Both the position numbers and the translations under genes were made by a program. A stretch of DNA of 64,000 bases from Schmidtea polychroa (lineage: Eukaryota), in assembly GCA_044892525.1 (NCBI GenBank), contig CM097885.1:72416001-72480000 (forward strand). The letters are read 5' to 3'. Of this stretch, positions 24,635 to 47,129 are shown one piece after another; position 1 is the stretch's first letter, and every line of letters starts with the position of its first letter. The notes beneath the pieces were generated by a model. That model was given only the letters and a program-made list of their open reading frames with translations, made no database searches and was not told the origin of the DNA.

Positions 24635-24724
24635 GTAAGACTAAACCTTTTTCAAATTCTATTTTTACCACATTTCCATAATATTAAGACAACATTAAGT
24701 GTTTAATATTACACTATTCCTACA
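24634..24724 (-). repeat. putative 91-bp 3' LTR of gypsy element 1
   Basis: Minus strand TGTAGGA...TCTTACA (TG..CA ends, 6/7 terminal inverted repeat), preceded by purine tract GGTGGGGG. The 5' LTR is not visible for confirmation. Confidence 0.6.
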
Positions 24725-26202
24725 CCCCCACCAGATTCATCTGAATCTTTAACAACTCTTTTTCTAATATCACCCACGTGTCGCGGCATATCATATCCAT
24801 GACATCTGACTAAAAATTTTGTATTTGATAATGGTTTATTGATATGCCCATCTTTCCATCTTTCTGTGCATTTTTTATTCAAATTCGGTTTTGTCCATAC
24901 TGGGTCACCAGCAGAATATTTTGCTTCGATTATTATCTCTTTTTTATTGTAGCTTGGCAGATTCAGCTTTGGATTATATCTAAATATGGCTCTAGATGGA
25001 CAAATATTATTGTTGTTTGGCGTTTTGTTGAACCAGTACACAGCTTCTGCGATTGTTCCTGAGGACCTAGCTGCTAGCGATTTGATTGTCCGATGGCTGC
25101 GTTCAATGATCCCGTTTCCCGCTCGGCGGTTCACAGTTCTAAATACCAACTCAACATTCAATTTATCTGCTAATCCTTGAAATATTCTAGATCTAAAAGA
25201 TAAGTAATTATCTAATAATATTTCACTTGGAGTTCCTCTTTCATATAGCACTTCATTTAAAGCAATACATATCTCTTCTACATTTTCATTCTTAATTTTC
25301 TTCCAAATTGCATATCTCGATGGTCCACAGACAATAATTGTCAAATATTTATCTTTAGCAAATTTAGCTACATCAATTGCTAAATGGCACCAATTTTCAT
25401 CACAGCTTAGTTCACCTTTTTCCCACGTTACTGGCGCTGGGTCAATTGATAGGCATTGATTACAACTAGCAATTATTTCTGAGATCTCATTATCCACATT
25501 TAGTAGCCCCGCTTCCGATGCTAAGAATCGCATACGATTTTTCCCTACATGGGAGTTCTTATGAATCTCTAATACCACATCTTTCGAGCTTTTTTGATTG
25601 CCTAGAGCTGCGACTTCTTTTTTATTAATCATCCAGTTGGCTGGTACTCTCGTTAAAACATTAGCCTTGTTATTTTTTGTAGATACAAACTCAATGTCCA
25701 TTTTAAGTTCATACTCAATCGCTAGATCTTTTAAAAGCTCCAGCCTTCGTCGTATTAACAACTCTGAATTTGCTTTTGTATGTATTTTTCTGTCGCTTGA
25801 TAATATGCTGTTAACCCAACACACAACTGATTTACTATCGGATTTAATTTTGATGTACTTTAGATTCCATTTAATACATAAATTAATACCCTTCACAATC
25901 GCTTCTAATTCCACCAAATTAATGTGTCCTGAATCATGAGGTTTTCGCAACCAACACGCATTTTCAACCACTGAACCTTCCATTTCTAATACAATTCCAA
26001 TAACGATCGAACTTGCATCGCACCAAATTATGCTTGTCTGATTGCTGGGAACACTCCAAATACCTGACAATGGATCTCTTTCATTTACTTTTTCTAATAA
26101 CCATTTTACTTTGTCAACGATATGATTTTCTATTGAATCATCCCAATTTCCACTGGATAGCCTCTTGATATATGAGCAAGCTGGCCGCAACCACCCAGAC
26201 AC
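24709..26202 (-). CDS. gypsy RNase H-integrase ORF (497 aa)
   Basis: ORF track; RNase H and DDE motifs as above; last RNase H Asp reads Asn (NKANVLTR). Confidence 0.85.
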   Translation of the reverse strand: MSGWLRPACSYIKRLSSGNWDDSIENHIVDKVKWLLEKVNERDPLSGIWSVPSNQTSIIWCDASSIVIGIVLEMEGSVVENACWLRKPHDSGHINLVELEAIVKGINLCIKWNLKYIKIKSDSKSVVCWVNSILSSDRKIHTKANSELLIRRRLELLKDLAIEYELKMDIEFVSTKNNKANVLTRVPANWMINKKEVAALGNQKSSKDVVLEIHKNSHVGKNRMRFLASEAGLLNVDNEISEIIASCNQCLSIDPAPVTWEKGELSCDENWCHLAIDVAKFAKDKYLTIIVCGPSRYAIWKKIKNENVEEICIALNEVLYERGTPSEILLDNYLSFRSRIFQGLADKLNVELVFRTVNRRAGNGIIERSHRTIKSLAARSSGTIAEAVYWFNKTPNNNNICPSRAIFRYNPKLNLPSYNKKEIIIEAKYSAGDPVWTKPNLNKKCTERWKDGHINKPLSNTKFLVRCHGYDMPRHVGDIRKRVVKDSDESGGGVGIV

Positions 26203-27420
26203 AGGATAAATTCCGACTAGCTGACCACATAACGAATACAGCTCTCTTCTTGAAAGCCCTTCATTTAATTCATTTATTCAAATATCGTTCGATCTTTTCC
26301 AATGTACTTCGTTATTCTTTCAAATTACATCAATACCTAATACTCTTACACTGAGAGTATTCTTGACCTTTTCTTCTTCTTTACATATCAAACCAAATTT
26401 ACGCATTTCTGCACTTACTTTACTTGCTTTAACTTTAGATTCATCTACGAATATATCGTCTATGTATGAACTTGTGCTATTCTTGATTGATTCATTGTTG
26501 TTCAATACTTTATTAACAATCTCTGTCATTATCGTTGGCGCGATATTCAATCCAAATCCCATTCTTGTAAGCCATATCTCTTCCCATTAACCATACAAGA
26601 TTGATATCGCCACATGCTTTTATCCACATGTATTTGCATATATGCATCAGATAAATCTAACATTGCAAATTCTTTACTTAAACATCTCCATGATCGTAAT
26701 TTTTCAGAACAAATATCTGCATTCCCACTATATACATCAATATATTTATTGATACTCCTAAGTCAAATACTGGACGCACTTTCGCTTTATTTAACTGAAT
26801 TATACCATAAATTGGTACTGATCCGATCGGTTTGCCCGTTGTTTTCTCGTCGTAATCAACAAGATAGCTGTTAGATATCCAAAAATTCAAGATACGCATC
26901 GTCTCCTGATCCTTACTACAATTATCATAAAAGTTTGAATTTCTATTAGGTAGAAATTTCGGCGGCTCTGACTTCCAATCCCATTTGACAATCCATTTCT
27001 CGTTTTCAAATCTCGCAGAGAAATTTTCCTTCAATATTTCTGACATACTACTACTAGAGCATGCTACGTGACAAGGTGCTTCTTCGCAACCGAATATGGC
27101 TTCTTTATTCAGTCGAACCCCACCAAACCTATTAATAGCATTCACTCCTAAAATTAAATCATAATTGGATACTAGTTTCGGGTATGTTAAACAATCAATA
27201 TTAAATAACTTATCTCCAACCGCTATATCAACTTTACTTCGCTCAGCATATATGATTGAACCATCAAGCATCGCTACCGCAGTCATAGATTTTCGTGGAT
27301 TTCCTTTTACTATAGTGGTAGTGCTGCCCGAATCAACTAAACATGCTTTTACATCACCATTTACTTTTAGAAGTCTCACATATTTACAATTCTTGGGGCC
27401 ACACCCGAGTCCACATGTGT

Positions 27421-27426
27421 GTAGCC
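27421..27426 (+). repeat. 6-bp target site duplication GTAGCC (left)
   Basis: Identical hexamer at 41601-41606. Confidence 0.97.
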
Positions 27427-28222
27427 AGTAGTGTGTATATAGCCCTAACCCAAACAACCCTCCCAACAAAAACATACCTCCATTACGCTTAAACTATTAG
27501 AAAACAACCCAAAACTTATACTTTTATAGTATTTTAACCCTATATTTTTGAAAACAACCACCCTTAATCTTTAAAGCCTCAAACTCAAAAGCTTCAAACT
27601 AAAAAGAGAATAGAAAAGAAAATGGCATTATGAAAAAGTTAGAGGGCTATTTGGGATAGGACTATATACACACTACTTTTGATCGCAATCAAACTCCGGA
27701 GTTGATCTTTATCAGATTATTGATTTTAAATTATATAAATTAAAAAATAAATGAAAAATAGTAAAACTGCTCTGAGGGGAGAGTGGTATTTTTTTTTTCA
27801 CTGTCCCCTCAACAGTTTTTTTGATCCGGATCATTTCAACCTCTTTCGTTTATCAAATCTCTTCTAATATACAAGCTGGCCAGACTCATACATCAGAATC
27901 AATCCGATAATAGCAGCACACCTTATTATTCGCTTCTCGCTCGAATACGATTTCATCGGCGTTTTAAGCGAACGATAATTACCGGTTCGCCACCATCACC
28001 CGTTTCAATAATTTTTTTTTCATATTTATGTTTAAAAAATAAAATAAATAAAATAAAATAAAAATAAATAAAATATACAACTACTTTATAAATCTAAGAT
28101 ACCCACACTATTATTTTCAAATTTTTAATATTATTTTATGTTGAAAAAAAACTAACCACAGTTAGGATTTGAACCACCATCCATTTGAACCACTGTGCCA
28201 GTCTAGCCCACTGCGCTATTAG
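27427..28222 (+). repeat. left terminal inverted repeat (~796 bp)
   Basis: Reverse complement of 40691-41600 apart from substitutions and one ~115-bp indel. Confidence 0.95.
28144..28222 (-). ncRNA. tRNA-like Pol III unit in left TIR
   Basis: Minus strand: A box TAGCGCAGTGG, B-box motifs GGTTCAAATGG and GGTTCAAATCC, then a run of Ts. Not a full cloverleaf. Confidence 0.55.
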
Positions 28223-28343
28223 ACTTTGGATTTTTATTTATAAAATTCTAAAAATTAGACTGTCACATTATGAAAATGAATAATATATAAATTTAAAAAA
28301 TAAAATGAAAACAGGGTATCCAATAAAAAATTTTTTTCTAAAA

Positions 28344-31300
28344 ATGAATTGTAATATTTGTAATAAAGTTTTTAAAAAAAAACTGGATTAATTTCTCACT
28401 TAAAATCGAAAGCTCATTTATTAAAAGAAAATATTCTTAATGATACAAATTCAAAACTTTGTCCTAAATGTAAAGGAAGATTTCTACATTCTGGATATAA
28501 TAAACATTTTGAAAATTGTATTGGGAAAAATAGAGAAATATTTACATGTCCTCATTGTAACTTTTCAACAAAACTAAATTTCTATTATTTAGAACATATA
28601 AAAGAATGTAAAAATAAAAAACAAAATTCTGACGATGAGGAATGTCATTCAGAAGGAGAACCTGATCATGTTGAAAGAGAAAAATATAACTGGGATAATT
28701 TTAATCATATAGATGAATTTCAATTAAAAATTAATGGACCTGCAACTCCTGGAGAATATATAAATAAAAATAAAAAAAATATTAAAATTTCTTTCACTGA
28801 AGCTTTAAAAAATTATAAACCGACAAGGTATAATGTTATAAAATATAAAATTATAATCAAAGCAAAATACTGGCGAGGAGCAGAAGAAAAGACAACACCC
28901 TTAGATGTTGAAATTGGAATACCTTTTAAATATTTATTTTCAACTAAAGGATTTGATAAAACCATCAAAGAAATAATTAAAGCAGCAGAAGCAAAACAAG
29001 AGGAAGTAGAAAATGAATTAGGAGATTCAAACTTAGTATTCAACTCTTTCCAAACTTTAGTGATTGATTATTGGAGAGGATTACCACCCAATCCTAAATC
29101 TTATATTCCTACACCCTTTAAATCTAAAAATGTTATAAACATACAGAATAATGATAACAAATGTTTCGTCTGGTCAATACTTGCACATTTACACCCTCAA
29201 GAATCAAACCCTCAAAGAGTTTCAAAATACAAACAATATGAAAATGAATTAATATTTCCCAAAGGATTCAAACATCCAATGAAACTAGAAGACATTCCAA
29301 AATTTGAAAGTTTAAATAATCTTAAAATTAATATTTATGAACGGGTTAAAGGGAAAAATATTAAAAGTAGAGAAATTATTCCAATTTACATTTCTGATAG
29401 TGGAACCGATAACCCTAGAGAAATATATCTTTTAATCTTGGAACAACAAAATAATCAACATTATGTTTTAATAAAAAACTTTCAAGCTTTTACATCACCA
29501 GAGAATCCAACTAGTGGAGGAGGAACATGTAAAAGATGTCTTCATTATTCAACAACTAAAAACTCTATGATTAAACATACAAGATTTTGTGAAAAAGATG
29601 AACCAGCTTTAATTAACATGCCTACAGATCCCAAGATGAATTTTAAAAACTTTTCAAATTTACTACAAACAGTAGGAGTGGTTTATGGAGACTTTGAATC
29701 TATAAATCGTAAACAAGATTTGGTTAACCAATATTTAAAAATAATAGAAAAAAATAAACTCATGGATTCCTGGAACTCCTCAGGAGAGAAGATGAAACCA
29801 GAGAGGATGAAAGCCTTTCTAAGAAAAAGGAATAAACCTAATAGTGTTAAAAAAACTAAACAATTACCATCTGCTTATAAATTATTATTTAAAAGTAATT
29901 ATCCTGAACTCATAGAATCTAGAGAATATACATTTCGAGGAATTTCAGAAACAGAAGTCTTGAATCATTTTACTAAAAGTATAAATGATCTAGAACATGA
30001 AATATTTAAAGTATTAAAAACAAACTATCCTCAAAATATTTCTAATCAACAACAACAAGAATATGAAAACACTTCCAACTGTTGGATGTGTAAACAACCA
30101 TTTGAAGAGTCTCCGAATATAAAAGTCCTCGATCATGATCATTTAAAAAAGGAAAATAATTATCGAGGAGCAGCTCATAAAAATTGCAATCTTAATTGTC
30201 ATACTCCTAAATTTGTACCTGTTATATTTCATAATCTTTTTGGTTATGACATACATCTATTTATTAAACATTTAGCAGAAAATGCTAAAAACTCTTTCAA
30301 AGTTATAGGACTTACAAAGGAAAAATATAAATCAATTGAATATGGAAAATTAAAATTTATAGACTCGTTAAACTTTCTCCAAATGTCTCTAGATACAGTA
30401 GCAAAAACAATGAAACCAGAAAATTTTAAAATCACTCGAGAATTCTTGGAAAAAAATAATATTCCTCCAGAAGAATATCCTACATGCTTAGCAAAAGGAA
30501 TATATCCTTATGACTATGTTGACTCGTTTGAAAAATATAATGAAACAAGTCTTCCTAGCCAAGAAGATTTCTCTTCACAACTTCAAAAATATCATATTAC
30601 AAATCAAGAATATTCTCGAGCAAATAAAATGTGGGAATTATTCAACTGTAAAACTTTAGGAGAATATACATGTATGTATTTATCCTTGGATGTTTATATT
30701 CTAGCAGATTGCTTTGAAGAATTTACAAAGTCTTCTGTTCTTAAACCTTACAATTATATAACAGCACCCTCTTTAGCTTGGGATACTTTATTATATACCA
30801 TTTGGACTTCAAATATAGAAGAAGGTGATAAAATTATAGATCTTTTAACTAACCTCGATATGTTTAACCAAATTAAAACAAACATTAGAGGAGGAGTCTC
30901 TTCAGTAATGGGGAATAGAGAAATAAAAGCTAGAAATGCAATAACTACTAGCAGAAGACTCTCTAAACACCCTAATGATCCATATATAAAAATTAACAAT
31001 GAGGAATTAAAAGAATTATTAGAAACAATGAAAAATCCTATATTTATACTTTATATAGATGCAACAGCTTTATATTCAGGAATTATGACTCAATATTTAC
31101 CAATGGGTAACTTTCATGAATTATATCCTTCAGAAGAATACCCTGAAGATTCCTCAGAAGAATCCTTAAAAGACCTTATAAAAGAAATACTTTCAACACC
31201 TAAAGATTCTCCAATAGGTTACTTTGTAGAATGTGACTTATTATATCCAGATGATATAAAATCAGGAACAAGATATTTCCCTTTAGCTCCTGTAAGAAGA

Positions 31301-32680
31301 AAGATTAATGTTAACGAACTTTCTGAATGGCAAATCTCACAAGATAAACCTCCAACAATGAAACTTCTTTGTGATCAAACAGATCGAAGGTTTTATCTTT
31401 GTCACTATAGACTCCTCCAATTTTATCTTTCACGAGGTATGATATTAAAAAAAGTTCATAGTGTCATAAGATTTAAACAAGCTCCATTCATGAAAGCTTT
31501 TATCGAGGAGAATATTAGGTGCCAAAACATTGCAAAAAGAGAAGGTAACCTTTTTAAAGATAATAATTATAAACTTTTAAACAATTCAGTCTTTGGGAAA
31601 ACAATGGAGAATGTTGATAAATATACTCATATTGAACTTTTAACTAATACTACCAAAGATATTAAGCGCTATAATCGTATGCTAGGAAAGCCTACATTTA
31701 AAAACGCACAAGTATTTTCTGAAAATCTTACTGCAATAGAACTAAAGAATTTTGAGAAAACATACAACAAACCAATATTTATAGGGTTTTCAATTTTAGA
31801 ACTTTCAAAATTACAAATGTATGAAACATATTATAACATCTTACAACCTATATATGGTTCTAATATATCAATGCATGCAATGGATACAGATTCAATGTTT
31901 TTAACAATAAGAACTCATGATTTACAAAGAGATATAGCCGAAAATCCTATACTTTCAAATTTAATAAATTCATCTGGAGAATTATTTTCGTTTAAAGATG
32001 AAAAACCTTTTACTCCTATAGAAAATGGAATATTTATTCGTTCTAAACAATATTCATACGAAACATTTAGAAACCCTGAATTTATAACTAGATCATTTAT
32101 ATTTAAAACTCCAGAAACAGAAGAAACCATTACACATAGATATCCTATATTTCCTAAAGAACCAGAGGGACAAGAAGAAAAACCTGTAAAGGATAACAGA
32201 TGTAAAGGAATACAGAAATCAGTTGCAAAGAATCTTTCTCATCAAGATTATATAGATACATTGAATCCAAATCATAAAGATAAAATTGATGAAATACATC
32301 AACTTAAAAGTGAAAACCATGATATTCACTTGATAGAATCTCAAAAAGTATCATTATCAAATTATGATGATAAAAGATTCATCCTAAGTGATTTAAAGAC
32401 AACTCTACCTATAGGAAATAATTTAATACCGATAATAAAAAATCTAGAAAAGTTGAATAAGTTATATGATACAAAAATTACTGATCTTGATATTTATAAT
32501 GTTGAAATCATTTATCCCGAGAGAGAAATCGAGAAGCCTTTATATTCTCAAGTTTTTAATCCTATATGTTTAGAACTTAAATATTTTAATACTGATCCTG
32601 AATATATAAAAGGTCTAAGTGATAAAGAATTTAAAGATCATAAATTAATGATTCAAAGGTTGGCTTTCAACGATATTTAA
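28344..32680 (+). CDS. polB: protein-primed family B DNA polymerase with N-terminal zinc fingers, OTU-like protease and endonuclease VII insertion (frameshift at 28374-28382)
   Basis: Exo motifs VYGDFES, FHNLFGYD, IDSLNF and LDVYILAD; Pol motifs YIDATALY, KLLNNSVFGK and MDTDS. The frame is open without a start codon from 28376 to the GTG at 29060; the ATG at 28344 is in another frame. Confidence 0.95.
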
Positions 32681-32758
32681 TTTTTTAATAATAAAATGTC
32701 GACAATTAATTTAAGCAACTATAGCAACCTGATCTACTTTTTTAAAAATACACCCATT

Positions 32759-33367
32759 TTATAAATAAGAATTCTTTAACCATTTCTCTCGTTTAATTTT
32801 TTTAGAATATTCATTAGTTATATCATTAGCGCTTTTTAATCTATTAATATTATTTTTAATATCTTGTATTATTTGATTTGATTTCATTATTTCATCATCA
32901 GTTAAGATTCCATCTTCCAAAGCTTTTAATTGAAATAAAAATAATTTAGAGATTCCAAATTCTATTGATAAACAAACTTCACGATATAAACATTTCTTTT
33001 TAGAAGTATAAGATAATGAAACTATTTCAGTTAGGAAACCATCAGCTACAGAAATACTTCCAAGTATTACTGGTGCAAGAGTAACAACTGGTAAAGTTAT
33101 AGGTAAAATAACTGTTAATATTGCAGATGCAAATCCTAAAGAATAACCTATAACTTTTAAAACTGTATTCCCTTTATTCCATCTATTTTTAATTTTTTTA
33201 TAATGCTTTAATAAATCTTGTAAATGTAAGGTTTCTGATTTAAATTCTTTTACTCTCATAATTTCAAGTTCTGTGGGAGCCGAGACCTTGGAACCTTTGT
33301 GACCTTCGGAATAATATCCTGATGATCTCACTTCTGGGTAAATTTTTTCTTCTCTTACTTCTTCCAT
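32759..33367 (-). CDS. Maverick protein with hydrophobic hairpin (putative membrane protein, 202 aa)
   Basis: VLKVIGYSLGFASAILTVILPITLPVVTLAPVILGSISVA hydrophobic stretch; KALEDGILTDDE tail. Confidence 0.75.
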   Translation of the reverse strand: MEEVREEKIYPEVRSSGYYSEGHKGSKVSAPTELEIMRVKEFKSETLHLQDLLKHYKKIKNRWNKGNTVLKVIGYSLGFASAILTVILPITLPVVTLAPVILGSISVADGFLTEIVSLSYTSKKKCLYREVCLSIEFGISKLFLFQLKALEDGILTDDEIMKSNQIIQDIKNNINRLKSANDITNEYSKKIKREKWLKNSYL

Positions 33368-33375
33368 TTTAATAA

Positions 33376-33687
33376 TTAAAAAAATAAGATTTTATTATCT
33401 GGTACCAATACTCGGATATCAAAAGAAACTCTTGTTGAGAGGATATCTTTATACAATTCTCTCAATGCTTTACGAACTTCATCAACATCAACCTTTTTTT
33501 CATAAAATATTAAATCTATATATTGTACAAGTGTGCTTTTAAAAATAATATTCTTACTTTTAACTTTATGTAGTCCATGTGAATGAGTATTAACATACCA
33601 ATCTCCGTGTGGTAAATCATAACTAGTCATTATAACATCACCCTTTTCAAGCTTACTATTATAATCACATTTCACAAACCATTTCAT
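33376..33687 (-). CDS. Maverick hypothetical protein (103 aa; may be the C-terminal head of the fibre gene)
   Basis: Intact ORF with ATGA overlap on the upstream stop; frame stays open 11 codons upstream of the ATG. Confidence 0.6.
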   Translation of the reverse strand: MKWFVKCDYNSKLEKGDVIMTSYDLPHGDWYVNTHSHGLHKVKSKNIIFKSTLVQYIDLIFYEKKVDVDEVRKALRELYKDILSTRVSFDIRVLVPDNKILFF

Positions 33688-34403
33688 TCTTTCATTATCA
33701 TCATCAAATAAAAATAAGGATCAATAATCTTTACAACCATAAAAACACCCCATTCTTTACTGTTTGTTGTTATTAAACTTGGTTCTATAAAATGTTTATA
33801 TGTATGGGGTAATAATGTTTTATTCTGTTCTAATTCAGCAGCTCTTTTTCTAATACTATGTGTGGTGTTAATGTGTGTTCCATGAGACTCTAAATTTGAA
33901 ATTCTTTTATTAAATGATGTAATCATCTCATTTATTATATTATATATTGTATTAAATTTAGTATTCATAATTTGTTTATCTTTAGAATTTAATATGCTAG
34001 TATTTAACTTTACAACTTGTTCAGTTAACAGACTTTGTAACTTGTCAAATTTATCATTAAATCGTTGTTCGATATTATTAAGCTTTGATTCCATCAAAGA
34101 ATTAACTTTGGATTCTATCAAGGTATCAATTTTTGTTGTTAATGAACTTTCAATTCTTGTTGTTGTTAAATCAGTATAATTTTTAACAACTACCTTTGCT
34201 TCCTCTACATATTTTTTATTAACTGCATCAAAATCATCAGTTGGTAAAGATAATTCTTTTATCTTGTGTCCATTTAAAATTAAATCTCCTTTCATTGAAT
34301 CACCTCTTTCATTAATATATCTCTTTTCTGTAAGAGATATAACATCTTCATCTTTTAATCCATCATTATATAATCCAAACTTATTATAATTAGCATAATT
34401 CAT
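33684..34403 (-). CDS. fibre/spike-like protein (239 aa)
   Basis: RGDSMKGDLILNGHKIKELSLPTDDFDAVNKKYVE resembles the GDxMxGxLxMxxxKIxxLxxPxxxxDAxxKxYV tail-fibre repeat, followed by a heptad-like helical segment. Confidence 0.6.
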   Translation of the reverse strand: MNYANYNKFGLYNDGLKDEDVISLTEKRYINERGDSMKGDLILNGHKIKELSLPTDDFDAVNKKYVEEAKVVVKNYTDLTTTRIESSLTTKIDTLIESKVNSLMESKLNNIEQRFNDKFDKLQSLLTEQVVKLNTSILNSKDKQIMNTKFNTIYNIINEMITSFNKRISNLESHGTHINTTHSIRKRAAELEQNKTLLPHTYKHFIEPSLITTNSKEWGVFMVVKIIDPYFYLMMIMKE

Positions 34404-34440
34404 TTTTATAGCAATAAAAATAAAATCCTTAGACGTCCCT

Positions 34441-35218
34441 CTAGACTTGTTTCAAATGTAAACACATTGAAATCTTTTCCCTATTAAAATTAATTAATTC
34501 CCCATTTTCATCAACAATTCTAAAACTAATATCCATTATATTTTTTCTACATAATGGTAAATAATTTGGGGGGTTCATTCTTTCAACCATTTTATATCCA
34601 ACTCGCACGGTATTAGAAGGAAAGGAATATAAAATATTTGCATGTTTACCATTATTGTATGATCCCATTATACAATCACACTCTATATTTATAGAATTTG
34701 TATTTGTTAATTGTATAATATATTTAGATTTAATAGGTGAAGGCGCTGTTGTTGATGGCATATATGTTTTAACTTCAAAACCTAAAATAGTATGAAAGAA
34801 ACTAGAAGTAGTAAAGTCCAACATTTTTTAAAGTTGCAATACATTTTGAAGTTTGTACATCTGCTTTTATTTCTACATTTCCATTTGTTTTTTTTAAAAT
34901 TGTTTTAGCTAAATCTGTTATTTCATATGATCCTGGTTCGATTGTTATAATGATGAATTCATTCATGGGTGGTGTGTCAGTCGCCTTAAGCATATTAAAT
35001 TTATTATTATTATTATTTATATTAAAAATAGTATTAAAACAGCTAAACCACAAGAGTCCTAATTCATAATTTAAATCTTGATCTAAATTTATTGAATCTT
35101 CAAAATTTATAGTAAAATCTGATTCTTTTGAATTTATTAATAAATTTCTTGAATATTTATGTGACATTATGTTTGCTATTTTTTTTAAATAATCTTCCGG
35201 AAGGTTGCGAAGCTCCAT
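34441..35218 (-). CDS. minor capsid protein (penton, single jelly roll), split by frameshift near 34824
   Basis: N-part: DFTINFEDSINLD, YELGL, ITIEPGSYEITDL. C-part: DFT..FHTILGF, INIECDCIMGSY, ILYSF, ISFRIVDENGELINFNRE. Positioned next to the protease. Confidence 0.85.
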
Positions 35219-35649
35219 TTTAATAGTAGAGATTTTAAATCATTATAAATTTCTTGGATTAAGGAAGTGAAACCTTCTCCTTTGGATTTATTCAATCTAT
35301 ACAAAACATATAAGCTTAAAATACCACATATTTTAGTATTATTAGGTTGAACTTGTAAAGAATTAAAAGTGTAGTCCTTCGAGAGATAGTCTTCAACTTC
35401 TTTAGTAGGTTTAATCCCAAAAGAATCAAAGTATATAGATTTATTATATATACAAACCCAATGAGATCCTTTTTCATTTGAATTTTGATAATTGATTATT
35501 ATATTATTCTCTTTCAGACTCGACAATTCATCATTCATTAATATTTTTATTTTTAAATTTAAATAATTTGCATAATCTTTTAAATCAAAATTTGTTTTTG
35601 CATTTATTCCAAATGTTTTTAAAAAATCTAATATTGAAGGACAAGTCAT
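35185..35649 (-). CDS. adenain-like cysteine maturation protease (154 aa)
   Basis: GSHWVC (His), YFDSFG (Asp), QVQ...ICG (oxyanion Gln and catalytic Cys). Confidence 0.92.
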   Translation of the reverse strand: MTCPSILDFLKTFGINAKTNFDLKDYANYLNLKIKILMNDELSSLKENNIIINYQNSNEKGSHWVCIYNKSIYFDSFGIKPTKEVEDYLSKDYTFNSLQVQPNNTKICGILSLYVLYRLNKSKGEGFTSLIQEIYNDLKSLLLKWSFATFRKII

Positions 35650-35657
35650 TTTGTATT

Positions 35658-36539
35658 TTATAACTTCGTATATTTATTAAATTTATCTTTTGAAATTATT
35701 CCTTGTTTTAACAAATCTTTAGAAATCTTTAAAATATCAGAATCTAAATTATTATGTCCTGCTTTCCTTGCAGATAATAGTTTTCTTAATTCAATAAAAA
35801 GATTGATTGGGTTTGGTTCAACCAATCCCTCACCCTCTGTAACAACATAACCCTTTTCATTTTTATTTAAATAATTCTTTAAATCTTGAATATATTTTGC
35901 TTTAGAACTAGCTCTTATTAATCTTATTAAATTTAAATATTTTTTAATTTCTTCAACATCATCTGAAGAATATCCACAAAGTAATCTATAAAAATCATCT
36001 GTAAATTCAAAGTCTAAATATTCATTATTATAAACATTTTGTGAATGAATACGTGATTTATTTTCTGAATTTGAATATAAAGTAAAGTTTTGTTTATTAA
36101 TTGTTATTATTTGATATCCTTCAGTATTAGTATTAAATGTGGGTCTAATTGAAGGAGGTAAATCATCTCTAATTTTAGGATCAACTTTAAGAGGTTTTGT
36201 TTTGAAAAACATTTCTTCTTCTTCCACATTAGAAATTCTTCTGCGTTTTCTTTGATTTCTTTCAGAATGACTTTCAGGATGGTTTTCACTGGATTCTTTT
36301 TCTTTATCCTGCCACTCTAGTTCTTTTATTTTTTGTTTTTTATCTTCTAACTCTTTAAATTTTGCTTGCTCATTGAAATCTTCCAACTCTTTTATAGCTT
36401 TAATTGTTGGCCCCTGTTGTTGTGTTATTACCTCATTTAATATTATAGATTCAGCATGTTGAGTTGTATTTTTTTTATTATATTTATCTTGTTCTGATTG
36501 TAATTTTTTTAAAAGTGCTAATCTTTCTTCATATACCAT
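35658..36539 (-). CDS. conserved Maverick protein of unknown function (293 aa)
   Basis: Intact ORF; C-terminal LRKLLSARKAGHNNL...LLKQGIIS resembles a recurrent Polinton helical motif; GEG|L candidate cleavage site. Confidence 0.7.
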   Translation of the reverse strand: MVYEERLALLKKLQSEQDKYNKKNTTQHAESIILNEVITQQQGPTIKAIKELEDFNEQAKFKELEDKKQKIKELEWQDKEKESSENHPESHSERNQRKRRRISNVEEEEMFFKTKPLKVDPKIRDDLPPSIRPTFNTNTEGYQIITINKQNFTLYSNSENKSRIHSQNVYNNEYLDFEFTDDFYRLLCGYSSDDVEEIKKYLNLIRLIRASSKAKYIQDLKNYLNKNEKGYVVTEGEGLVEPNPINLFIELRKLLSARKAGHNNLDSDILKISKDLLKQGIISKDKFNKYTKL

Positions 36540-36578
36540 TTTAATGGTATCAAAAATGGTATCATAGTTCGAAGGGCT

Positions 36579-37121
36579 TCAAGTATAATCCTTTACCATT
36601 TTTAGTTTTACAAAGCATCCATTCTTTAAAGATTTACATATTTTTTTTAAATCTTCTTTATCTTTTGAAGATAAAGATTCAGATGTAGAAATTTGATTTT
36701 TTAAAAATTCATTTAAACCTCTACCTTTATAAGGATCAAGATAGAGACCTTTGCCCTGAGACTTTTGCCGACTCCCCTCATATGGATTAAGATAGAGACC
36801 CTTTCCAACGGACACTCCCCCTTTAGCTTGCCCTACCTTCTTCATTGAATTGATTTCAGTTTGTAGTTTTTCTTTTTCTAGGTCTGTCTTTTGAGATTCT
36901 TTAGCTTTTTGAACTGTAGTTGCAATTCCTCCAGCTATTCCAGCAGCACCTGATAAACCAGCAATGATTGCAGGTATTAAAGCAGCTAATGGAAGAACGC
37001 CACCTTCTTTAGCTTCGTGGAGCTTCGCTCTAACTTGTTCTTTTACATGTTTTCCAATAAAATATTTTTTACCATCAATTACTACTGATTTATTTTTATT
37101 TGAATTTATTAATTCTTGCAA
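36579..37121 (-). CDS. putative virion core / membrane-lytic precursor (180 aa)
   Basis: EGG|VLPLAALIPAIIAGLSGAAGIAGGIATTVQKAK Gly/Ala-rich hydrophobic helix; repeated GKG|LYLxPY and GRG|L sites. Confidence 0.7.
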   Translation of the reverse strand: MQELINSNKNKSVVIDGKKYFIGKHVKEQVRAKLHEAKEGGVLPLAALIPAIIAGLSGAAGIAGGIATTVQKAKESQKTDLEKEKLQTEINSMKKVGQAKGGVSVGKGLYLNPYEGSRQKSQGKGLYLDPYKGRGLNEFLKNQISTSESLSSKDKEDLKKICKSLKNGCFVKLKMVKDYT

Positions 37122-37154
37122 AGATTCTTCAGTTGTTATTTTATAATAAATAAA

Positions 37155-37964
37155 ATGGATGTACGAAGTCCAATAATTTGGAAACCAATTTTAAATAGAC
37201 ATAAGAGTAAATTTAATAATAAAGTATTTCCTGATAATTTTAGATTATTAATTGTTGGTTCTTCTGGATGTGGAAAGAATGTACTTGTTTTGAAAATGTT
37301 GCTTGAAGATGATTTTTTAGATTATAATAATTTTATCTTTTACTCTACAACCATAAATCAACCAGAATTACAACTTTTGAAATGTGGATTTGAAAATAAA
37401 TTAACTAAAAAAGCTATAATTGATATTTTTAAAAATCAACATAGATGTCCTGAAGAAGTTTTTCAACCTTGTGATATGGTTGATTGGTATAAGGAAAAGA
37501 TTTTAGAATCAGATATTAGTAATAAAAATGATTATATTTGTGAAGATCAGGGGCAGGAGGCAATTCAAGTTTTATTCTCTAATAAACCTGAAGATGTTTT
37601 ACATTGTGATTTACTTCCTAAAGATAAAAAGAATCTAGTTATATTTGATGATGTTGTCAACATGAAAAATCAAGAGATTCAAAAGAGTTACTTTACACGA
37701 GGTCGACATAATAATTGTAATGTTATTTATATATCTCAAACTTATTATGCTTTAGATAAAAACTCTATAAGAAATAATTCTAATTGTTTTATATTTTTTA
37801 AATTAGATCGCCGTGATAAGAATATGATTTATAATGACTTATTTTCAAATGTTGAACCTGATAAGAATATGTTTGATATGTTTGTTGATAATCATTGGAA
37901 AGAAAAATATAATTATATTTATTTGGATAGAGAAGAAGCTGAAATATGGAAAAGTTTGTTTTAG
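37155..37964 (+). CDS. A32/FtsK-like genome packaging ATPase
   Basis: Walker A GSSGCGKN, Walker B LVIFDD, RGRHNN..YISQ motif; ATG at 37155 in AAAATG context. Confidence 0.95.
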   Translation: MDVRSPIIWKPILNRHKSKFNNKVFPDNFRLLIVGSSGCGKNVLVLKMLLEDDFLDYNNFIFYSTTINQPELQLLKCGFENKLTKKAIIDIFKNQHRCPEEVFQPCDMVDWYKEKILESDISNKNDYICEDQGQEAIQVLFSNKPEDVLHCDLLPKDKKNLVIFDDVVNMKNQEIQKSYFTRGRHNNCNVIYISQTYYALDKNSIRNNSNCFIFFKLDRRDKNMIYNDLFSNVEPDKNMFDMFVDNHWKEKYNYIYLDREEAEIWKSLF

Positions 37965-37975
37965 GGCTTGTCGAC

Positions 37976-39340
37976 TTAAAAATCTGTTTTCTGTAACTCA
38001 TTATTATAAAATCTACCTAATATTTTTTCATTATTTAAATCAATGATGCTATATGTTATTGGAGTTGTATAATTTATTTTATTTATAATAAAAATTTCAT
38101 TTGTCCATTTTGCTGTGCATCCTTTTTCAAATTTATTTTTGTATTTAAATATTCTTACTCGGTCACCAATTTTAAACTTTGGTTTTTCAATAACATCATT
38201 TTCAATATTTACCACTTTAATGGTTTCAGGATTTATGGAAGCATTTAAAGGTGTTGATTTTATAGAACTATGTACATCATTATTATATTCATTTACAATC
38301 TTTTGTAACAATTCATTGTTCCATTTTTGTTTTCCAATAGCAGTAAAATATTTCCACATTTTATTTTTTAATGTTCTATTTAATCTTTCAACTACGACTG
38401 CTTTTCCTTCGTTTTCTGTTGAATATAATTTAATATCATTTTCATTTAAAAACTTTGTAAAAACTTTGTTATAAAATTCTGTTCCTTTATCACACCATAA
38501 ATATTTTGGAATTCTTTGATGTTGTTCAAATATATTTTCAAATGCTTCTGTAATAGAAAATCCTGTTTTATTTTCTAAACATCTTGCAAAAGCAAATCTT
38601 GTATATAAATCTATTACTGTTAAAATTATTTTATATTTTTCAGGGTCTGATGATTTGGTTGGCATAAAGACTAAATCTGCAGACCATGTTTGATCTTTTT
38701 CATGTACTTGAACTTTTAAATATTTTTTATTTTTTCTAAATTCATGGTGTAATTCATTAGCATATTTTATTTCTGATTCTATTGGGGTTAATAAACTAGT
38801 CTTGGATATATTCTCGAGGGATCTTTCAGCATCTGCTTGTTCAATAATCTTTTTATTAGCAACATCTTTTGCCATCCTTGGTAAACTAGCACCTATGAAA
38901 ATCTTACCTTTCATGGCTAATTTAACTAGAGCTCTTTGAATCTTTTCTTGGGTTGATGGATTTTGGATACTATTTAAATCATGTATTAAATTCACATCTG
39001 CAACATGTCTATCTCTAAGATCTTCTGAGTTGTAAGCAATATCATGTTTTAAAGCTGCTTGATCAATTCTATTTATTGGTTCTTCTCCTTGTTTAGGATT
39101 ATTATTTTCATCTAATCTAATATCTAATCTTGTTCCTGGTCCAGTATAGTTGTGTTTAAATAAATGTCTTTCACCTGGATATTTTTCTGTAGTAAAAGGT
39201 TTTAATATTGAAGATATTGTTTTTGAAGATTGTAGATCACCTCCTGTATGTTTTTTAGTTTTTAAATGACTTGCTTTATGGTGTTTTGTAACTTGACAAT
39301 TACAAGTTTCGCATCTCCAATAGGGTTTATTTAAAGACAT
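37976..39340 (-). CDS. zinc finger - PLA2 - retroviral-like DDE integrase fusion (454 aa)
   Basis: CETC..H..H finger; YTGPGT, AALKHDIAY and HVAD (PLA2); WSAD (D222), WCD (D284), VVER (E318); SH3-like FKIGDRVRI tail; no chromodomain. Confidence 0.93.
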   Translation of the reverse strand: MSLNKPYWRCETCNCQVTKHHKASHLKTKKHTGGDLQSSKTISSILKPFTTEKYPGERHLFKHNYTGPGTRLDIRLDENNNPKQGEEPINRIDQAALKHDIAYNSEDLRDRHVADVNLIHDLNSIQNPSTQEKIQRALVKLAMKGKIFIGASLPRMAKDVANKKIIEQADAERSLENISKTSLLTPIESEIKYANELHHEFRKNKKYLKVQVHEKDQTWSADLVFMPTKSSDPEKYKIILTVIDLYTRFAFARCLENKTGFSITEAFENIFEQHQRIPKYLWCDKGTEFYNKVFTKFLNENDIKLYSTENEGKAVVVERLNRTLKNKMWKYFTAIGKQKWNNELLQKIVNEYNNDVHSSIKSTPLNASINPETIKVVNIENDVIEKPKFKIGDRVRIFKYKNKFEKGCTAKWTNEIFIINKINYTTPITYSIIDLNNEKILGRFYNNELQKTDF

Positions 39341-39357
39341 TTTAAAATGTTAAAATA

Positions 39358-40650
39358 TTAAGAATCTCCCCTAACATTTTCGATTATTGAAATCTTTCCA
39401 CCATATAATTTCATTTCTATTTTCTTTTCTTCTAATATTAATGTATATACTTTAGCTTTAAAATTAGAATCCTTTGTTATATGAAGTGTAACATCAACAT
39501 TATTTATGGCTAGGCGATCATCTTGGTCTGAAACATTTATACAAAATATAGAATATAAATTTTTGAAATCTTCTAAACTTAATTGCGGTTCAACTTTGAA
39601 ATCATAACATGTTTCAATATAATTTAGATATGGGAATATGTTTTCATTATTTTCAATATTAAATTCCATTCTATTTATTGGATAATAAGAACTATTTAAT
39701 TGAATTTGGATTGTTTTTAAATTATCAACTCCAATCTTTTGAATAAACAAGTTGTTATTTTTTTGGAAAGATGAATCTACTTCTTTGAATCCAATCAAGA
39801 TATATCTTGGTCGGTATGCTAAATTTGCTACCTTTATAGAATATGTTGAACCCTCTGTCATACTAAATTCACTACAGATTCTATTTAAATAATTTACATT
39901 TATAGACTTGTTGGAATTTAATCTTTCAAGGAGTTTGATTTCGGAATGTGGATTTAATGTCCATTCAGGTATATGCAATTCAAGTGTTGATATTTTTAAT
40001 TTAGCTGTTGTATCTGCAGCTCCATAGAACAATCTTTTATCACCTTCTACTCTATTACAAACTAATTCTATAAAAACATTATGAAGTATACGGTTATAGT
40101 TTTGAATGAATCCAAATAAGTGTTTTAATTTAAAATAACCTTCAAATTTTTTAGATTTATAAAGTTCAGCTCTTTTATAGTAACCATAATTTATATCTAA
40201 ACCATCTTTATCCAAATCTCCTTTATTAACATCAGGAATCCAGCCTGTTAATTCACCATATTCATTTTTATAATCACAACCAGTCAAAATAAAATTTAAC
40301 ATTGTAGAATATACTCCCGGATGCAAAACAGTTTCAATTTCTGATGATCCTAGTTTTAATCTCATGTTGGAGAATAAATTTGGAAAGAAATTCTTTTCTA
40401 GGGTTATATCTTTGTTTGCTTCAATTTCTAATTCGATTTTATAATATAATTTGGCATTACAAATATCTATTGGGTTTGATGTTTGAAGAGATTGAAAAAC
40501 TATATCACCCCTACGATTTAAGTTTGCAATAGATCCTGAAGTTGGGGATATTTTAAGTACATCATTTTTTTTGATTTCATGAGTAAATTCTTTATTATAA
40601 TCAAGATTTAATTTATTTTTTTCTTGAATTTTAAGATTTATATTATTCAT
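39358..40650 (-). CDS. major capsid protein (double jelly roll, 430 aa)
   Basis: Size and position, beta-rich composition, LFSNMRLKLGSSEIE, RPRYILIGF, QIQLNSSYYP and LYSIFCINVS segments typical of Polinton MCP. Confidence 0.88.
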   Translation of the reverse strand: MNNINLKIQEKNKLNLDYNKEFTHEIKKNDVLKISPTSGSIANLNRRGDIVFQSLQTSNPIDICNAKLYYKIELEIEANKDITLEKNFFPNLFSNMRLKLGSSEIETVLHPGVYSTMLNFILTGCDYKNEYGELTGWIPDVNKGDLDKDGLDINYGYYKRAELYKSKKFEGYFKLKHLFGFIQNYNRILHNVFIELVCNRVEGDKRLFYGAADTTAKLKISTLELHIPEWTLNPHSEIKLLERLNSNKSINVNYLNRICSEFSMTEGSTYSIKVANLAYRPRYILIGFKEVDSSFQKNNNLFIQKIGVDNLKTIQIQLNSSYYPINRMEFNIENNENIFPYLNYIETCYDFKVEPQLSLEDFKNLYSIFCINVSDQDDRLAINNVDVTLHITKDSNFKAKVYTLILEEKKIEMKLYGGKISIIENVRGDS

Positions 40651-40690
40651 TTTTATAATAAAAATTTAAAAAATGACAAAAATCTGAAAC

Positions 40691-40769
40691 CTGATAGCGC
40701 AGTGGGCTAGACTGGCACAGTGGTTCAAATGGATAGTGGTTCAAATCCTAACTGTGGTTAGTTTTTTTT
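40691..40769 (+). ncRNA. tRNA-like Pol III unit in right TIR
   Basis: TAGCGCAGTGG (40695), GGTTCAAATGG, GGTTCAAATCC, then T-run from 40762. Confidence 0.55.
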
Positions 40770-41600
40770 CAACATAAAATAATATTAAAAATTTGAAAAT
40801 AATAGTGTCAGTATCTTAGATTTATAAAGTAGTTGTATATTTTATTTATTTTATTTATTTTATTAATTAATTAATTTTTAAACATAAATATGAAAAAAAA
40901 AAATATTGAAACGGGTGTGGTGGCGAACCGGTAATTATCGCCACCAGTCTTTCGAACACCCCCGGATCGATTCTATAATGTGCACATTTATTTTTCAGTT
41001 GTTTTCGAACCTCTTTCGGATTCACTTTCGAATTCATTTGTACTTTCGAGCAGCACGCTTAAAACGCCGATGAAATCGTATTCGAGGGAGAAGCGAATAA
41101 TAAGGTGTGCTGCTATTATCGGATTGATTCTGATGTATGAGTCTGGCCAGCTTGTATATTAGAAGAGATTTGATAAACGAAAGAGGTTGAAATGATCCGG
41201 ATCAAAAAAACCGTTGAGGGGACAGTGAAAAAAAAAAATACCACTCTCTTCTCAGAGCAGTTTTACTATTTTTCATTTATTTTTTAATTTATATAATTTA
41301 AAATCAATAATCTGATAAAGATCAACTCCGGAGTTTGATTGCGATCAAAAGTAGTGTGTATATAGCCCTATCCCAAATAGCCCTCTAACTTTTTCATAAT
41401 GCCATTTTCTTTTCTATTCTCTTTTTAGTTTGAAGCTTTTGAGTTTGAGGCTTTAAAGATTAAGGGTGGTTGTTTTCAAAAATATAGGGTTAAAATACTA
41501 TAAATGTATAAGTTTTGGGTTGTTTTCTAATGGTTTAAGCGTAATGGAGGTATGTTTTTGTTGGGAGGGTTGTGTTGGTTGGGTATATATACACACTACT
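40691..41600 (-). repeat. right terminal inverted repeat (~910 bp)
   Basis: Reverse complement of the left TIR, with extra segment 40941-41055. Confidence 0.95.
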
Positions 41601-41633
41601 GTAGCCCCTTGATCTTTTTCCGACTTGTAAAAC
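41601..41633 (-). mobile_element. TSD plus upstream continuation of gypsy element 1 (runs into N gap)
   Basis: Removing the Maverick and one TSD restores an open frame FTSRKKIKGLHTCGLGCGPKNCKYVRLL. Confidence 0.7.
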
Positions 41634-42155: not shown

Positions 42156-42615
42156 GATTTGACAGTGATTTTCATAGAATTCTCACTGATGCCTTTGTGT
42201 AATCTGTCATTCCATCTTCCAAAAAAGTATAAAAGCCAACCAAGTGACAATCATGACGATACTCACAAAGATTCATATTCATCTGATCACAAAGTCAATT
42301 CAGAATACACTCTACATAGGTCGTCTCTTCTCCACGAAATTGGGATGTATTTGCATTATATCAGCATATGTATTCTTGTGGTTTTCATGGTAGAGTTGAT
42401 CTTGCGGATTTTGTGCATTGGGGAAAGATTTTTCAAGAAAAAAGTTGAAGTAAATGTTTACTTGTATTAATGATCACAGCTAACCATTTAGATGTTTGAT
42501 GGGACGATCATTGTTACATCGTTTATGGCCGATATCATATTTGTTCAATTGAAATCTGATCAAATCTCAGTAATGGTCGTATTCTTGCTATGGAGAATTG
42601 TCAGATTGATCAATG
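42156..42615 (+). CDS. HVCN1: voltage-gated proton channel Hv1-like, S1-S4 exons (42-nt intron 42450-42491)
   Basis: S1 D-x6-E (DLTVIFIE), S2 HYISICILVVFMVELILRI, FFKKKVE|MFDGTIIVTSFMADI (S3) and LWRIVRLING (S4). The GT-AG phase-0 intron joins the frames. First and last exons unresolved. Confidence 0.8.
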
Positions 42616-43308
42616 GTAATTATATATTCCCTTTTGCCAGTTGCGATAGTTATAAATGCGGTCAAATTATAACCTTTAGCGCGCTACCGGACATAATAGT
42701 TTTTTACAATTCATCTTTTTCAATAATAATATCTCATCTCAAATAATTTGGTTGCCAAATATAATGGCTTCAATCATGAAATAGTTCTTTTCAATTTAAT
42801 ACGAAATCTAACTGATGTTGTAATCTTTCCGTTGTATATCTTTCTCTCGCGGTTTATTTGCAGTAAAATCTTACAACCTTTATTTCTTTTTGGTAATAAT
42901 AGTCAAATATTTATTAAAGAAAAAGCTCAATACATACTGATGGGGTGTTATATCTTCATGTCTGCCCTTTTAACGATGCTGGCATCACTAAGAAACTATG
43001 AATATTTATTTTTAAAATGCTTAATTCATGCACATTCTTGAAAATTTGAAACATAGCTGAATAAATGTAAATTTGTTTTTGGATTTTTAATTTTAAATAT
43101 TAAAATTAAATTTTTAAAATATGATTTCTCTAGAATTTTTAATTTAAATTAATTCATCAAGAACAACAAAAAGGTAAAAAAAATTTAATTTGAAAAATAA
43201 TACTATCATCTGGGTTTTGACTAGATGGAAAAGGATGGTTTCATAATCGAAAATTCTCAATTGTAAAGATTTGCAGTGAATATTTACAATTCTTATTCAT
43301 TTACAATA

Positions 43309-44798: not shown

Positions 44799-47129
44799 CA
44801 CCTATCCCCCGATTTACACGGTAGATACGTTCCTGAGAAAAACGTGTAAATCGAAAATATAAAATTTTCAAGTCAAAACCGTGTAAATCGAAAAGCTTGC
44901 AGAAAATGCATAATTTTGCTATTTAACAGTTGTGATTTTTTTCAATATTTTTAGGTGTACACAGAAATAAAAATAAAATGCATTGACAGATTAAAATATG
45001 TAATATATTACGGAAACACTGTTTTTTTATTTAATTACAATACATTAAACAGAAGAACAAAAAATAAAACCAATGGTATTTTATTATCCTTCATCACTAT
45101 CAGAAATTACTCTCATTCTTTTTTTTTGAATCGAAGGTTGGAATTCATTTTCATCACTCGAAGTTATTTGCGCCGATTCGATGTTTGAAGCAGAAATATT
45201 TACATTCTGAGAGGTGGTAATAAAATCGGTTATTAACAATTGCTTCGAATTTTTTGTAAGATCTTTGTAAACTTCTTCATATTGAGCCAAGCAGCGATTT
45301 ATGTCACGTTGAAATCGTAAAGCCCTTTCTACGTTTGTGTCATTTTGTATAAAATGATTACCCAGCTTTCTTCCCAATGCGAGTCCTTCGCGGATGACTT
45401 TAGCAGTGAATGTTACTGGTACTAATTCCTCTTCATCAGATTTTTCAGACTCACTTTCGCAAACTAAGTTAACTAAATCATCCTCACTTAGTTCTTTATC
45501 AACCATTAACTCTGCGATATCATCATCAGTAAAATCATCAAAACCTTCTACGCCCAATGAATGCGCCATCTGTACTATCTGCGAATATTCATCATTTAAC
45601 GTTGAAATGGAATGTTCATTTTTGACTACATTTGGCTACAATTTTTTCCAACAGCTATTGAGCGTTGTTTGCTTAATCGCAGTGTATGATAAGGCGATAT
45701 GCTTCACACAATCTAATATTGTAAAATTTTTCCAAGCACTAATAACTGTTAAAGATTCATTTTTCTCCATTTGTTCCAAAATATATGTAAAGGCTCGTTT
45801 TATGTACAAAGCTTTAAAAGTAGAAATTATGCCTTGGTCCAATGGTTGTAATAATGAAGTTGTATTTTTTGGTAAAAATTTTACTTCAACATTCTCATAT
45901 TCTAAATCTTGTGGGTGACCCGGCGCATTGTCAATTAACAAAAGCACTTTAAAAGGCAATCCCTTTGAACCTAAATATTTTTTGGCATCTGGGATAAAAC
46001 ATTCATGAAACCATTCAGTAAACATTGCAGCAGTAACCCACGCTTTCTTATTAGCCCTCCAATAAACGGGAAGATTTTTGATGTTTACTCCTTTAAAGGC
46101 ACGGGGCATTTTTGATTTGTTAATCACTAATGGTTTCATAATATAATCGCTAATATAATATCATAATATAATTGCTACAGAAAAGAATTGTTATGCGATC
46201 TTTTGCTGCTTTATGACCACTAGCCGATTTATAAAATTTTGAGACATAAGTCCTTTCAGGCATTTTTTTCCAGAATAACCCTGACTCATCAGCATTGAAA
46301 ACCTGATCAGGGGTGTATGAATTGTCGTTAATAATTTCTCCAAAATTTGCTGGATATTCTTGAGCTGCATCTACGTCGCCAGAAGCCAGTTCACCTTTTA
46401 ATTTTAAGCTGTGTAAAGAATGTCTTATTTTAAATCTTTCAAACCAGCCATGACTTGCCAAAAAATTTGGCTTCTTTTCAGTTGAAGAAGAAGATGGTAA
46501 TTGCTCTACAATCTTTTCGTAAATTCGTACTGCTTTATTTGTTATAGCGGCCGTATCAATGGGTACTCTTTTTTGTGTTTGATCTTCTATCCAAAGCATT
46601 AACGCTTTCTCCATTTTTTCCATTGCGATATTTCTGGTGTATGATGTTGTGCCCATACTCGTGGTATTGCCAGCTGCAACACTCTTTCTAATTGTGTTTT
46701 CATTTGTTCTAATGGTTCTTATTGTAGCTTCGTTCATGCTATATGATTTTGCAACATCTACTACTCTATCTCCCTTTCGTAAGCGATCCAAAATTTCGAT
46801 TTTAGTTTCTAAAGAAATAACTTTTCTTTTAACTTCTTTCGACATTATAAGCCTATAATTTTTTTTAATTTATGTTAATTTATAATATGTAATCTAAATT
46901 ATGCACTCACTTTAAACTTTAAAACTTTAATTTTATGCGAAGAAATACAGACACAGTGTGCATGTGCAGCAAGTCAGCACATAAGCTCAGGATTCCCTGT
47001 GAGATGTGTACACAGCGCACGTGTTCAAACACAGTAGCATTTAGTAGAGTGCGATAAATAAATTATTTGGAAAACCGTGTAAAAGCGAAAACGTGTAAAA
47101 CAAGTACCGTGTAAATCGGGGGATAGGTG
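44799..47129 (-). mobile_element. Tigger/pogo DNA transposon, full length, disrupted transposase
   Basis: 25-bp TIR CACCTATCCCCCGATTTACACGGTA, TA TSD, subterminal CGTGTAAATCGAAAA repeats. CENP-B HTH, VFNADESGLFWK, LLIDNAPGH and LQPLDQG are split over three ORFs (46150-46845, 45636-46139, 45084-45569). Confidence 0.95.

Follow-up and report, generated by a model that had tools for sequence, protein, structure and literature searches.

Within a stretch of 64,000 nucleotides from the Schmidtea polychroa genome (contig CM097885.1, positions 72,416,001 to 72,480,000; hereafter the window), positions 27427-41600 are occupied by a Polinton/Maverick element of 14,174 bp in which one gene joins a phospholipase A2 (PLA2) to a chromodomain-less integrase. 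This fusion, flanked by protease-type sites, is the distinctive trait of the element, and it was missed by an earlier reading made from the sequence alone (the sequence-only reading), which had described a near-complete endogenous polintovirus with a full virion module. We interpret the element as a moderately young, now defective copy of its family. In the mechanism that we propose, the fusion would be packaged and cut at maturation, the PLA2 would aid endosomal escape, the integrase would stay on the genome, and this copy would need help in trans. We give this interpretation, copy status and predicted mechanism together, a probability of roughly 0.6. The fusion is encoded as follows.

37976..39340, minus strand: zinc-finger-PLA2-integrase fusion of 454 amino acids (aa), DDE residues D222/D284/E318, chromodomain absent
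38921..39166, minus strand: parvovirus-type PLA2 domain (PF08398, E 2.5e-9)

Pfam recognizes both rve (PF00665) and PLA2 (PF08398) in this single 454-aa open reading frame (ORF). Judged by its motifs, the PLA2 appears catalytically complete, with a YxGPG loop, H99-D100-x-x-Y103 and D115, which we take to be the calcium loop and the HDxxY/D catalytic residues. Of 50 homologues, which share 37-90% identity over the first 260 residues, 43 have the two Pfam domains in combination. Among these 50 proteins, the PLA2 histidine and first aspartate are each kept in 49 and the second aspartate in all, and the three integrase DDE residues are kept in 50, 48 and 46. A JGI scan gave nine loci, of which two, L001 and L002, were used; downstream of the L001 major capsid protein (MCP) gene, the same PLA2/integrase order was read by eye. 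No Chromo match was found in the integrase, and the ORF stops right after the integrase C-terminal motif. Thirty-seven homologues extend to the C-terminus and 35 of these stop at the same point, so the chromodomain appears to be missing across the lineage.

The borders of the PLA2 domain are marked by glycines. Gly-Gly (GG) immediately precedes PLA2 in 35 of the 50 homologues, and an invariant glycine (50/50) follows it, with GG or Gly-x-Gly (GxG) at that place in 43 of 50 when the count is anchored on the alignment. Across 11,078 residues of the integrase parts, the strict patterns [LIMFV]xGG and [LIMFV]xGxG matched five times. GG/GxG motifs are also present at the C-terminus of the MCP and in the pX-like and 293-aa ORFs of the element, and none was found in its 202-, 103- and 239-aa ORFs or in either half of its penton.

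These features suggest a mechanism in which virion maturation separates two enzymes. The Polinton entered its target, a Gypsy-type retrotransposon, by the action of the rve integrase, as its AGT2 ends and 6-bp target-site duplication (TSD) show. The family encodes protein-primed replication and an adenovirus/virophage-like capsid module, with particles predicted from the gene content. The zinc finger-PLA2-integrase fusion would be packaged in the manner of the mavirus integrase, and during maturation the putative cysteine protease of the element would cut it at the Gly-Gly or Gly-x-Gly sites flanking PLA2. The freed PLA2 would then help to breach the endosome and the integrase would stay with the genome, so that entry would be linked to integration. 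Because the continuity of penton and pPolB and the start of the pX-like gene have been lost, the copy at 27427-41600 would need sister copies in trans. It is possible, although we put it forward tentatively and from sequence comparison, that a widespread and apparently undescribed Polinton lineage packages zinc finger, PLA2 and chromodomain-less integrase as one polyprotein that its protease cuts at GG/GxG.

The ends of the element and its insertion site are defined by the following features.

24712..27426, minus strand: host Gypsy-type long terminal repeat (LTR) retrotransposon pol (protease-reverse transcriptase-RNaseH-integrase), with three breaks
27421..27426, unstranded: left TSD, GTAGCC, at the element edge
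27427..28235, plus strand: core of the left terminal inverted repeat (TIR), starting AGTAGT and missing a ~113-nt block of the right TIR
40678..41600, minus strand: right TIR, ending ACTACT, an inverted-repeat match to the left arm
41601..41606, unstranded: right TSD, GTAGCC, at the element edge

The boundaries given by the sequence-only reading proved exact, as the AGTAGT and ACTACT termini are bordered on either side by the perfect 6-bp TSD GTAGCC. The insertion point in the Gypsy pol is immediately upstream of its protease motif. The TIRs measure ~810 nt on the left and ~925 nt on the right, the ~113-nt block being present in the right arm and not in the left, and they differ by 24 substitutions in 806 aligned columns, seven of them in ~516 central columns. 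Between the TIRs, ~12.1 of 12.3 kb are coding. No second copy of the element was found elsewhere within the 64-kb window.

The genes of the virion module and the smaller ORFs lie next to one another on the minus strand, interrupted by the genes for the fusion and for the ATPase.

32759..33367, minus strand: 202-aa ORF, a membrane-protein candidate with a hydrophobic stretch at about residues 69-118
33376..33687, minus strand: 103-aa ORF of no known family, its start being the only one of 11 without AAA directly before it
33684..34403, minus strand: fibre-like or coiled-coil ORF of 239 aa (phrog_2710, tail fibre)
34441..35218, minus strand: penton (single jelly roll), as ORFs of 138 and 127 aa split at ~34817-34821
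35185..35649, minus strand: putative adenain/Ulp1-like maturation protease of 154 aa, with the motif order H63/D75/Q101/C108
35658..36539, minus strand: 293-aa ORF of no known family, with one GxG motif close to the C-terminus
36579..37139, minus strand: pX-like core or membrane-active ORF, with a hydrophobic helix after GG and six GG/GxG motifs
39358..40650, minus strand: double jelly-roll MCP (PF21738 in Pfam, and predicted fold)

The gene set proposed by the sequence-only reading was recovered at two levels of support: pPolB, integrase, ATPase, MCP and penton by Pfam or fold, the protease by its motif order and the fibre by a short PHROG match. The structure predictions that it had called for agree with its assignments of MCP and penton. 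The MCP model reaches a predicted local distance difference test (pLDDT) score of 88 and matches the MCPs of PBCV-1, mavirus, iridovirus and Sputnik, and many viral MCPs in BFVD match it at fold level with 6-15% identity. The penton was identified through a relative, P0050 (65% identity), whose model was compared in its place: it matched PBCV-1 (Z 13.7, root-mean-square deviation (rmsd) 2.6, 129 aligned), the mavirus penton (Z 12.1, rmsd 5.4, 222 aligned) and the Sputnik penton (Z 11.5, rmsd 4.7, 228 aligned). Searched against PDB sequences, the protease gave no match; it is 48% identical to an L002 protein that itself has a weak Peptidase_C5 match (PF00770, E 0.046). Its residues H63, D75, Q101 and C108 presumably hold the catalytic roles.

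The remaining ORFs gave weaker leads. The phrog_2710 match of the 239-aa ORF (E 3.4e-5) covers 59 residues, 33-91; ESM Atlas returned no match at 0.9 for this ORF, with unnamed clusters only, and a heptad test gave a period of ~3.8 and no clear coiled-coil. The 103-aa ORF is possibly the frameshifted end of this fibre-like gene, judged from its start context only. For the 202-aa ORF we obtained a SLATT/DUF4231-like lead and unnamed ESM Atlas clusters, and for the pX-like ORF a weak Adeno_PX match (E 0.026). An 86-aa ORF of L002 that was considered as a counterpart of the pX-like ORF was rejected as not homologous. The expectation of several membrane-entry candidates was borne out by the PLA2, the pX-like ORF with its hydrophobic helix and the hydrophobic 202-aa ORF.

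Replication and packaging are represented by two genes on the plus strand.

28344..32680, plus strand: pPolB, with an N-terminal C2H2 finger, a frame change and then an open frame of 1434 codons
37155..37964, plus strand: A32/FtsK packaging ATPase (PF04665, E 2e-8; Walker A GCGKN)

pPolB matches its family in Pfam (PF03175, E 5.7e-15) and has six exonuclease and polymerase motifs, which we take to be Exo I-III and Pol A-C. Its residues C263 and H362 are, by our own assignment, putative vOTU residues; the corresponding Cys and His motifs are common to L002, and no Pfam OTU match was obtained. A further insert resembles EndoVII/HNH by motif and by a weak match (PF02945, E 0.036). Such an insert has been reported for nematode and oomycete pPolB2 and, weakly, for Spodoptera Mavericks too (PMC5803895).

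The ATPase carries asparagine in its Walker A motif (GKN), compared with threonine or serine in 77 of the 80 homologues scored (70 of 150 were left unscored). A lesion of this copy was considered as the cause and rejected: since GKN is found in all 10 ATPase sisters and in more distant relatives, among them P0285, a member of the cluster to which a relative of 64% identity belongs, and P0267, the alignments identify it as a lineage trait and not as damage. The ATPase of this copy has a short insertion relative to its sister P0126. The ATPase and pX-like ORFs are arranged head-to-head with a gap of ~15 nt (36579-37164), and the AT-rich stretch TTTTATAATAAATAAAA between them is a candidate bidirectional promoter. 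AAA directly precedes the start in 10 of the 11 listed genes.

According to the sequence-only reading, nearly all ORFs of the element are intact; this did not hold. The penton is split at ~34817-34821, whereas all 18 homologues, from a search that took in only proteins of more than 223 aa, are single ORFs of 243-325 aa. The zinc finger of pPolB is broken where the frame shifts within an A-run (~28374-28382), in a region that is one ORF in L002. The pX-like frame (36579-37190) has no ATG before 36845, and its start codon is absent. Start context, and no other evidence, hints at a fourth break, which would lie between the ORFs of 239 and 103 aa. Private substitutions are also highest in this copy, with 6 in the MCP against 0-5 in seven sisters and 6 in the ATPase against 0-2 in ten. 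The copy is probably unable to form particles alone, and of the virion-forming Polinton that had been proposed, the full morphogenetic gene set stands, with breaks in penton, pPolB and the core-protein-like gene.

Sister proteins, which the sequence-only reading had suggested seeking, were found for MCP, integrase and ATPase. Seven full-length MCP sisters share 95.8-97.2% identity with this copy, and among themselves they share 96.5-99.5%; the integrase sisters are 93-97% identical. The sister proteins at 94-97%, together with the lineage-wide GKN Walker A, indicate a young Polinton family. Fifteen runs from five studies contain a share of 0.28-0.85 of the sampled words (matches below 0.2 were disregarded), and the top run may be the source sample itself. 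None of the runs on record was of RNA, which has no bearing on whether the element is expressed. A more distant relative is L002, whose positions 1-9190 hold a Polinton of 45-50% identity with an unbroken penton and a different gene order, in which MCP, penton and protease adjoin pPolB. For two ORFs of L002, one of 205 aa and one of 134 aa with a zinc finger, no counterpart was noted in the element at 27427-41600. Scans of IMG/VR gave no true relative: L010-L012 match at the rve core only (E 3e-8 to 6e-4), and L013 was rejected as a chance match of a Mu-like phage. An exact protein look-up found none of eight ORFs of the window.

A different account takes the element for an ordinary Polinton of adintovirus type, whose PLA2X and integrase genes lay side by side and became fused; the fusion would then be tolerated without functional coupling, and GG/GxG would be a legacy of PLA2X. 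PLA2X is indeed known as a stand-alone gene with a pX-like C-terminal part in the Alpha-class virion modules of adintoviruses (PMC8502044), and Spodoptera Mavericks have a separate PLA2 'CAP' (PMC5803895). However, the fusion persists, with its two catalytic centres unimpaired, in homologues of as little as 37% identity, and it accompanies the absence of the chromodomain across the lineage, and we regard a merely tolerated fusion as unlikely. Several observations do weigh against maturation cleavage and against a defective copy within a virion-forming family. The strict, alignment-free pattern finds the second site in 13 of 50 homologues; the alignment-anchored count of 43 does not demand a hydrophobic P4 residue. 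The copy at 27427-41600 keeps the first site and is without the second GG/GxG, which two full-length sisters have. Motifs of the GG/GxG type are found in pPolB, in the ATPase and even in the protease, and the glycine motif may do no more than cap a helix taken over from PLA2X genes of the stand-alone kind. The closest full-length pentons found were ~65-67% identical, which leaves room for a penton break common to close sisters, and errors in the assembly could account for the breaks as well.

If the frame changes were assembly errors, or were bypassed by slippage in the A-run or by a spliced pPolB leader, the copy would be intact and autonomous. The pPolB break does fall in an A-run, the window has eight N-gaps, and no break interrupts the frames of MCP, ATPase, integrase and protease, in which catalytic residues are kept. 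This account would nevertheless have to explain three breaks, independent of one another and of two kinds (shifted frames and a lost start), the loss of the second protease-type motif, the excess of private substitutions and the divergence of the TIRs in both their central columns and the 113-nt block; the pPolB N-terminus of L002, moreover, lies in one ORF without a leader. We consider an intact copy quite improbable. Less probable still would be a family that now persists as an intracellular transposon only, its capsid module decaying family-wide and its PLA2 serving passage through the nuclear envelope or vesicles, or nothing. The lack of a full-length penton at ~95%, despite MCP, ATPase and integrase sisters at 94-97%, would fit such decay, as would GKN in 10 of 10 sisters against T/S in 77 of the 80 scored homologues. 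Yet proteins can escape word-based searches, the occurrence of GKN in P0285 and P0267 marks it as old and conserved, and seven full-length MCP sisters remain 96.5-99.5% alike. A moderately young, defective copy of a family that packages and cleaves its fusion is thus the interpretation that we prefer.

The TIRs contain two further kinds of feature.

27427..27677, unstranded: left copy of a 251-bp terminal cassette with its own inverted 36-nt termini
41350..41600, unstranded: right copy of the 251-bp cassette with its own inverted termini (single-stranded DNA panhandle, z -2.7)
28144..28218, minus strand: RNA polymerase III (Pol III)-like unit (A box, B box, T8), directed outward, a pattern match in the left TIR
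40695..40769, plus strand: Pol III-like unit, directed outward (A box 40695, B box 40738, T8 40762-40769)

The inner boundary of each cassette is an inverted copy of the 36-nt element terminus. In appearance the left outer terminus stands midway from the right outer one to the inner copies, which suggests conversion between termini. The cassette could be a candidate non-autonomous mini-element or a second replication origin. Immediately inside the inner TIR terminus, at 27678-27712, lie the palindromes TTGATCGCAATCAA and AACTCCGGAGTT. The two Pol III-like units are the only matches of the A-box/B-box/T8 pattern in the window, and the pattern, drawn up after inspection of the sequence, did not occur in 20,000 composition-matched simulations. 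The units are of tRNA-like length and have a second A-box and a tandem second B-box-like word. They were rejected as tRNAs, with no ARAGORN or Rfam match, and they fold no better than shuffled sequences (z 0.09). They may be VA-RNA-like helpers; a literature search on such units in the TIRs of Polintons, within the accessible parts of the sources, yielded nothing relevant.

The surroundings of the element hold remains of other transposons.

11527-11955, minus strand: mariner-like fragment
45087-46869, minus strand: broken Tigger/pogo-like transposase
49648-50451, plus strand: hAT-like fragment

That these neighbours are riddled with stops, in contrast to the Polinton, was right in direction, the neighbours being more damaged per kb: there are three breaks over the ~2.7 kb of the Gypsy pol, and the Tigger-like transposase is in three pieces. 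It was too strong for the Gypsy pol, which retains an open stretch of 522 codons. Upstream of the Gypsy lies an imperfect direct duplication of ~130 nt (22335-22460 and 22571-22700, seen by eye). About 0.6 kb past the right end of the element, beyond an N-gap, two exons resemble the voltage-gated proton channel Hv1 (42177-42617, intron of ~41 nt; weak PDB matches, E 0.02-0.08).

Polintons are known in planarian genomes and are piRNA targets in one planarian (PMC8532177), and Mavericks with (AGT)2/(ACT)2 ends and 6-bp TSDs are well documented (PMC8097293). Like the vertebrate Mavericks, the element has AGT2/ACT2 ends, a 6-bp TSD, pPolB, an rve integrase, ATPase, MCP, minor capsid protein (mCP) and a putative protease, and its TIRs and total size fall inside the vertebrate ranges of 46-1,447 bp and 12.7-24.6 kb (PMC8097293). 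It differs from them in the PLA2-integrase fusion, the GKN Walker A, the Pol III-like units in its TIRs and the nested 251-bp cassette, and some of its core ORFs are interrupted in the assembly, so that it is not 'intact' as defined for that set. Near-intact elements are well described, including 134 intact Mavericks in 17 vertebrate species (PMC8097293; also PMC8502044). Since many are already known, one more near-complete copy adds little, and the near-complete polintovirus of the sequence-only reading is an ordinary and somewhat overstated finding.

With Alpha-class adintoviruses the element shares hexon, penton, a putative adenain, FtsK ATPase, integrase, parvovirus-type PLA2, pX-like and fibre-like ORFs and a SLATT-like lead. 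In adintoviruses, however, PLA2X is a separate gene (PMC8502044) and the integrase is defined as having a C-terminal chromodomain (bioRxiv 10.1101/2024.03.25.586562), whereas the integrase of this element bears PLA2 in its N-terminal part and has no chromodomain. What is new, as far as the literature searched can tell, is this fusion without a chromodomain, which marks a lineage outside the current adintovirus definition. The literature searched, with supplements, Repbase and most subscription literature lying outside it, describes stand-alone PLA2 genes only; terms for the fusion were looked up in the accessible parts of PMC3671162, PMC5803895, PMC11161782, PMC4642659, PMC11131425 and bioRxiv 10.1101/2023.08.22.554363, 10.1101/2024.03.25.586562 and 10.64898/2026.10.13.758929.

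Protein-primed replication, ATPase-driven packaging and protease maturation are established for this group (PMC11161782), and PLA2s and lipases of Polintons have been proposed as entry factors (PMC4642659, PMC8502044). Particles of animal Polintons have not been observed (PMC8097293), and the fusion bears on whether these elements form infectious particles. If our interpretation is true, the retention of an endosome-lysing enzyme and its processing sites in the integrase gene would indicate, at the level of sequence, movement from cell to cell as particles, and the conserved fusion with its predicted maturation sites offers a cheap biochemical test of a virion-specific step. In parvoviruses the same PF08398 domain belongs to the capsid protein VP1u, and here it is tethered to the integrase instead. 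Mavirus provides the closest precedent for the proposed processing: its MCP and penton folds match those found here, GG|X and GX|G are the sites at which its maturation protease cuts, and the integrase and a cleaved predicted hydrolase are found inside its virions (PMC6048507). Mavirus, however, relies on a giant virus in a protist and makes its integrase (MV02) and its hydrolase (MV13) as two proteins, whereas the planarian element joins PLA2 and integrase in one.

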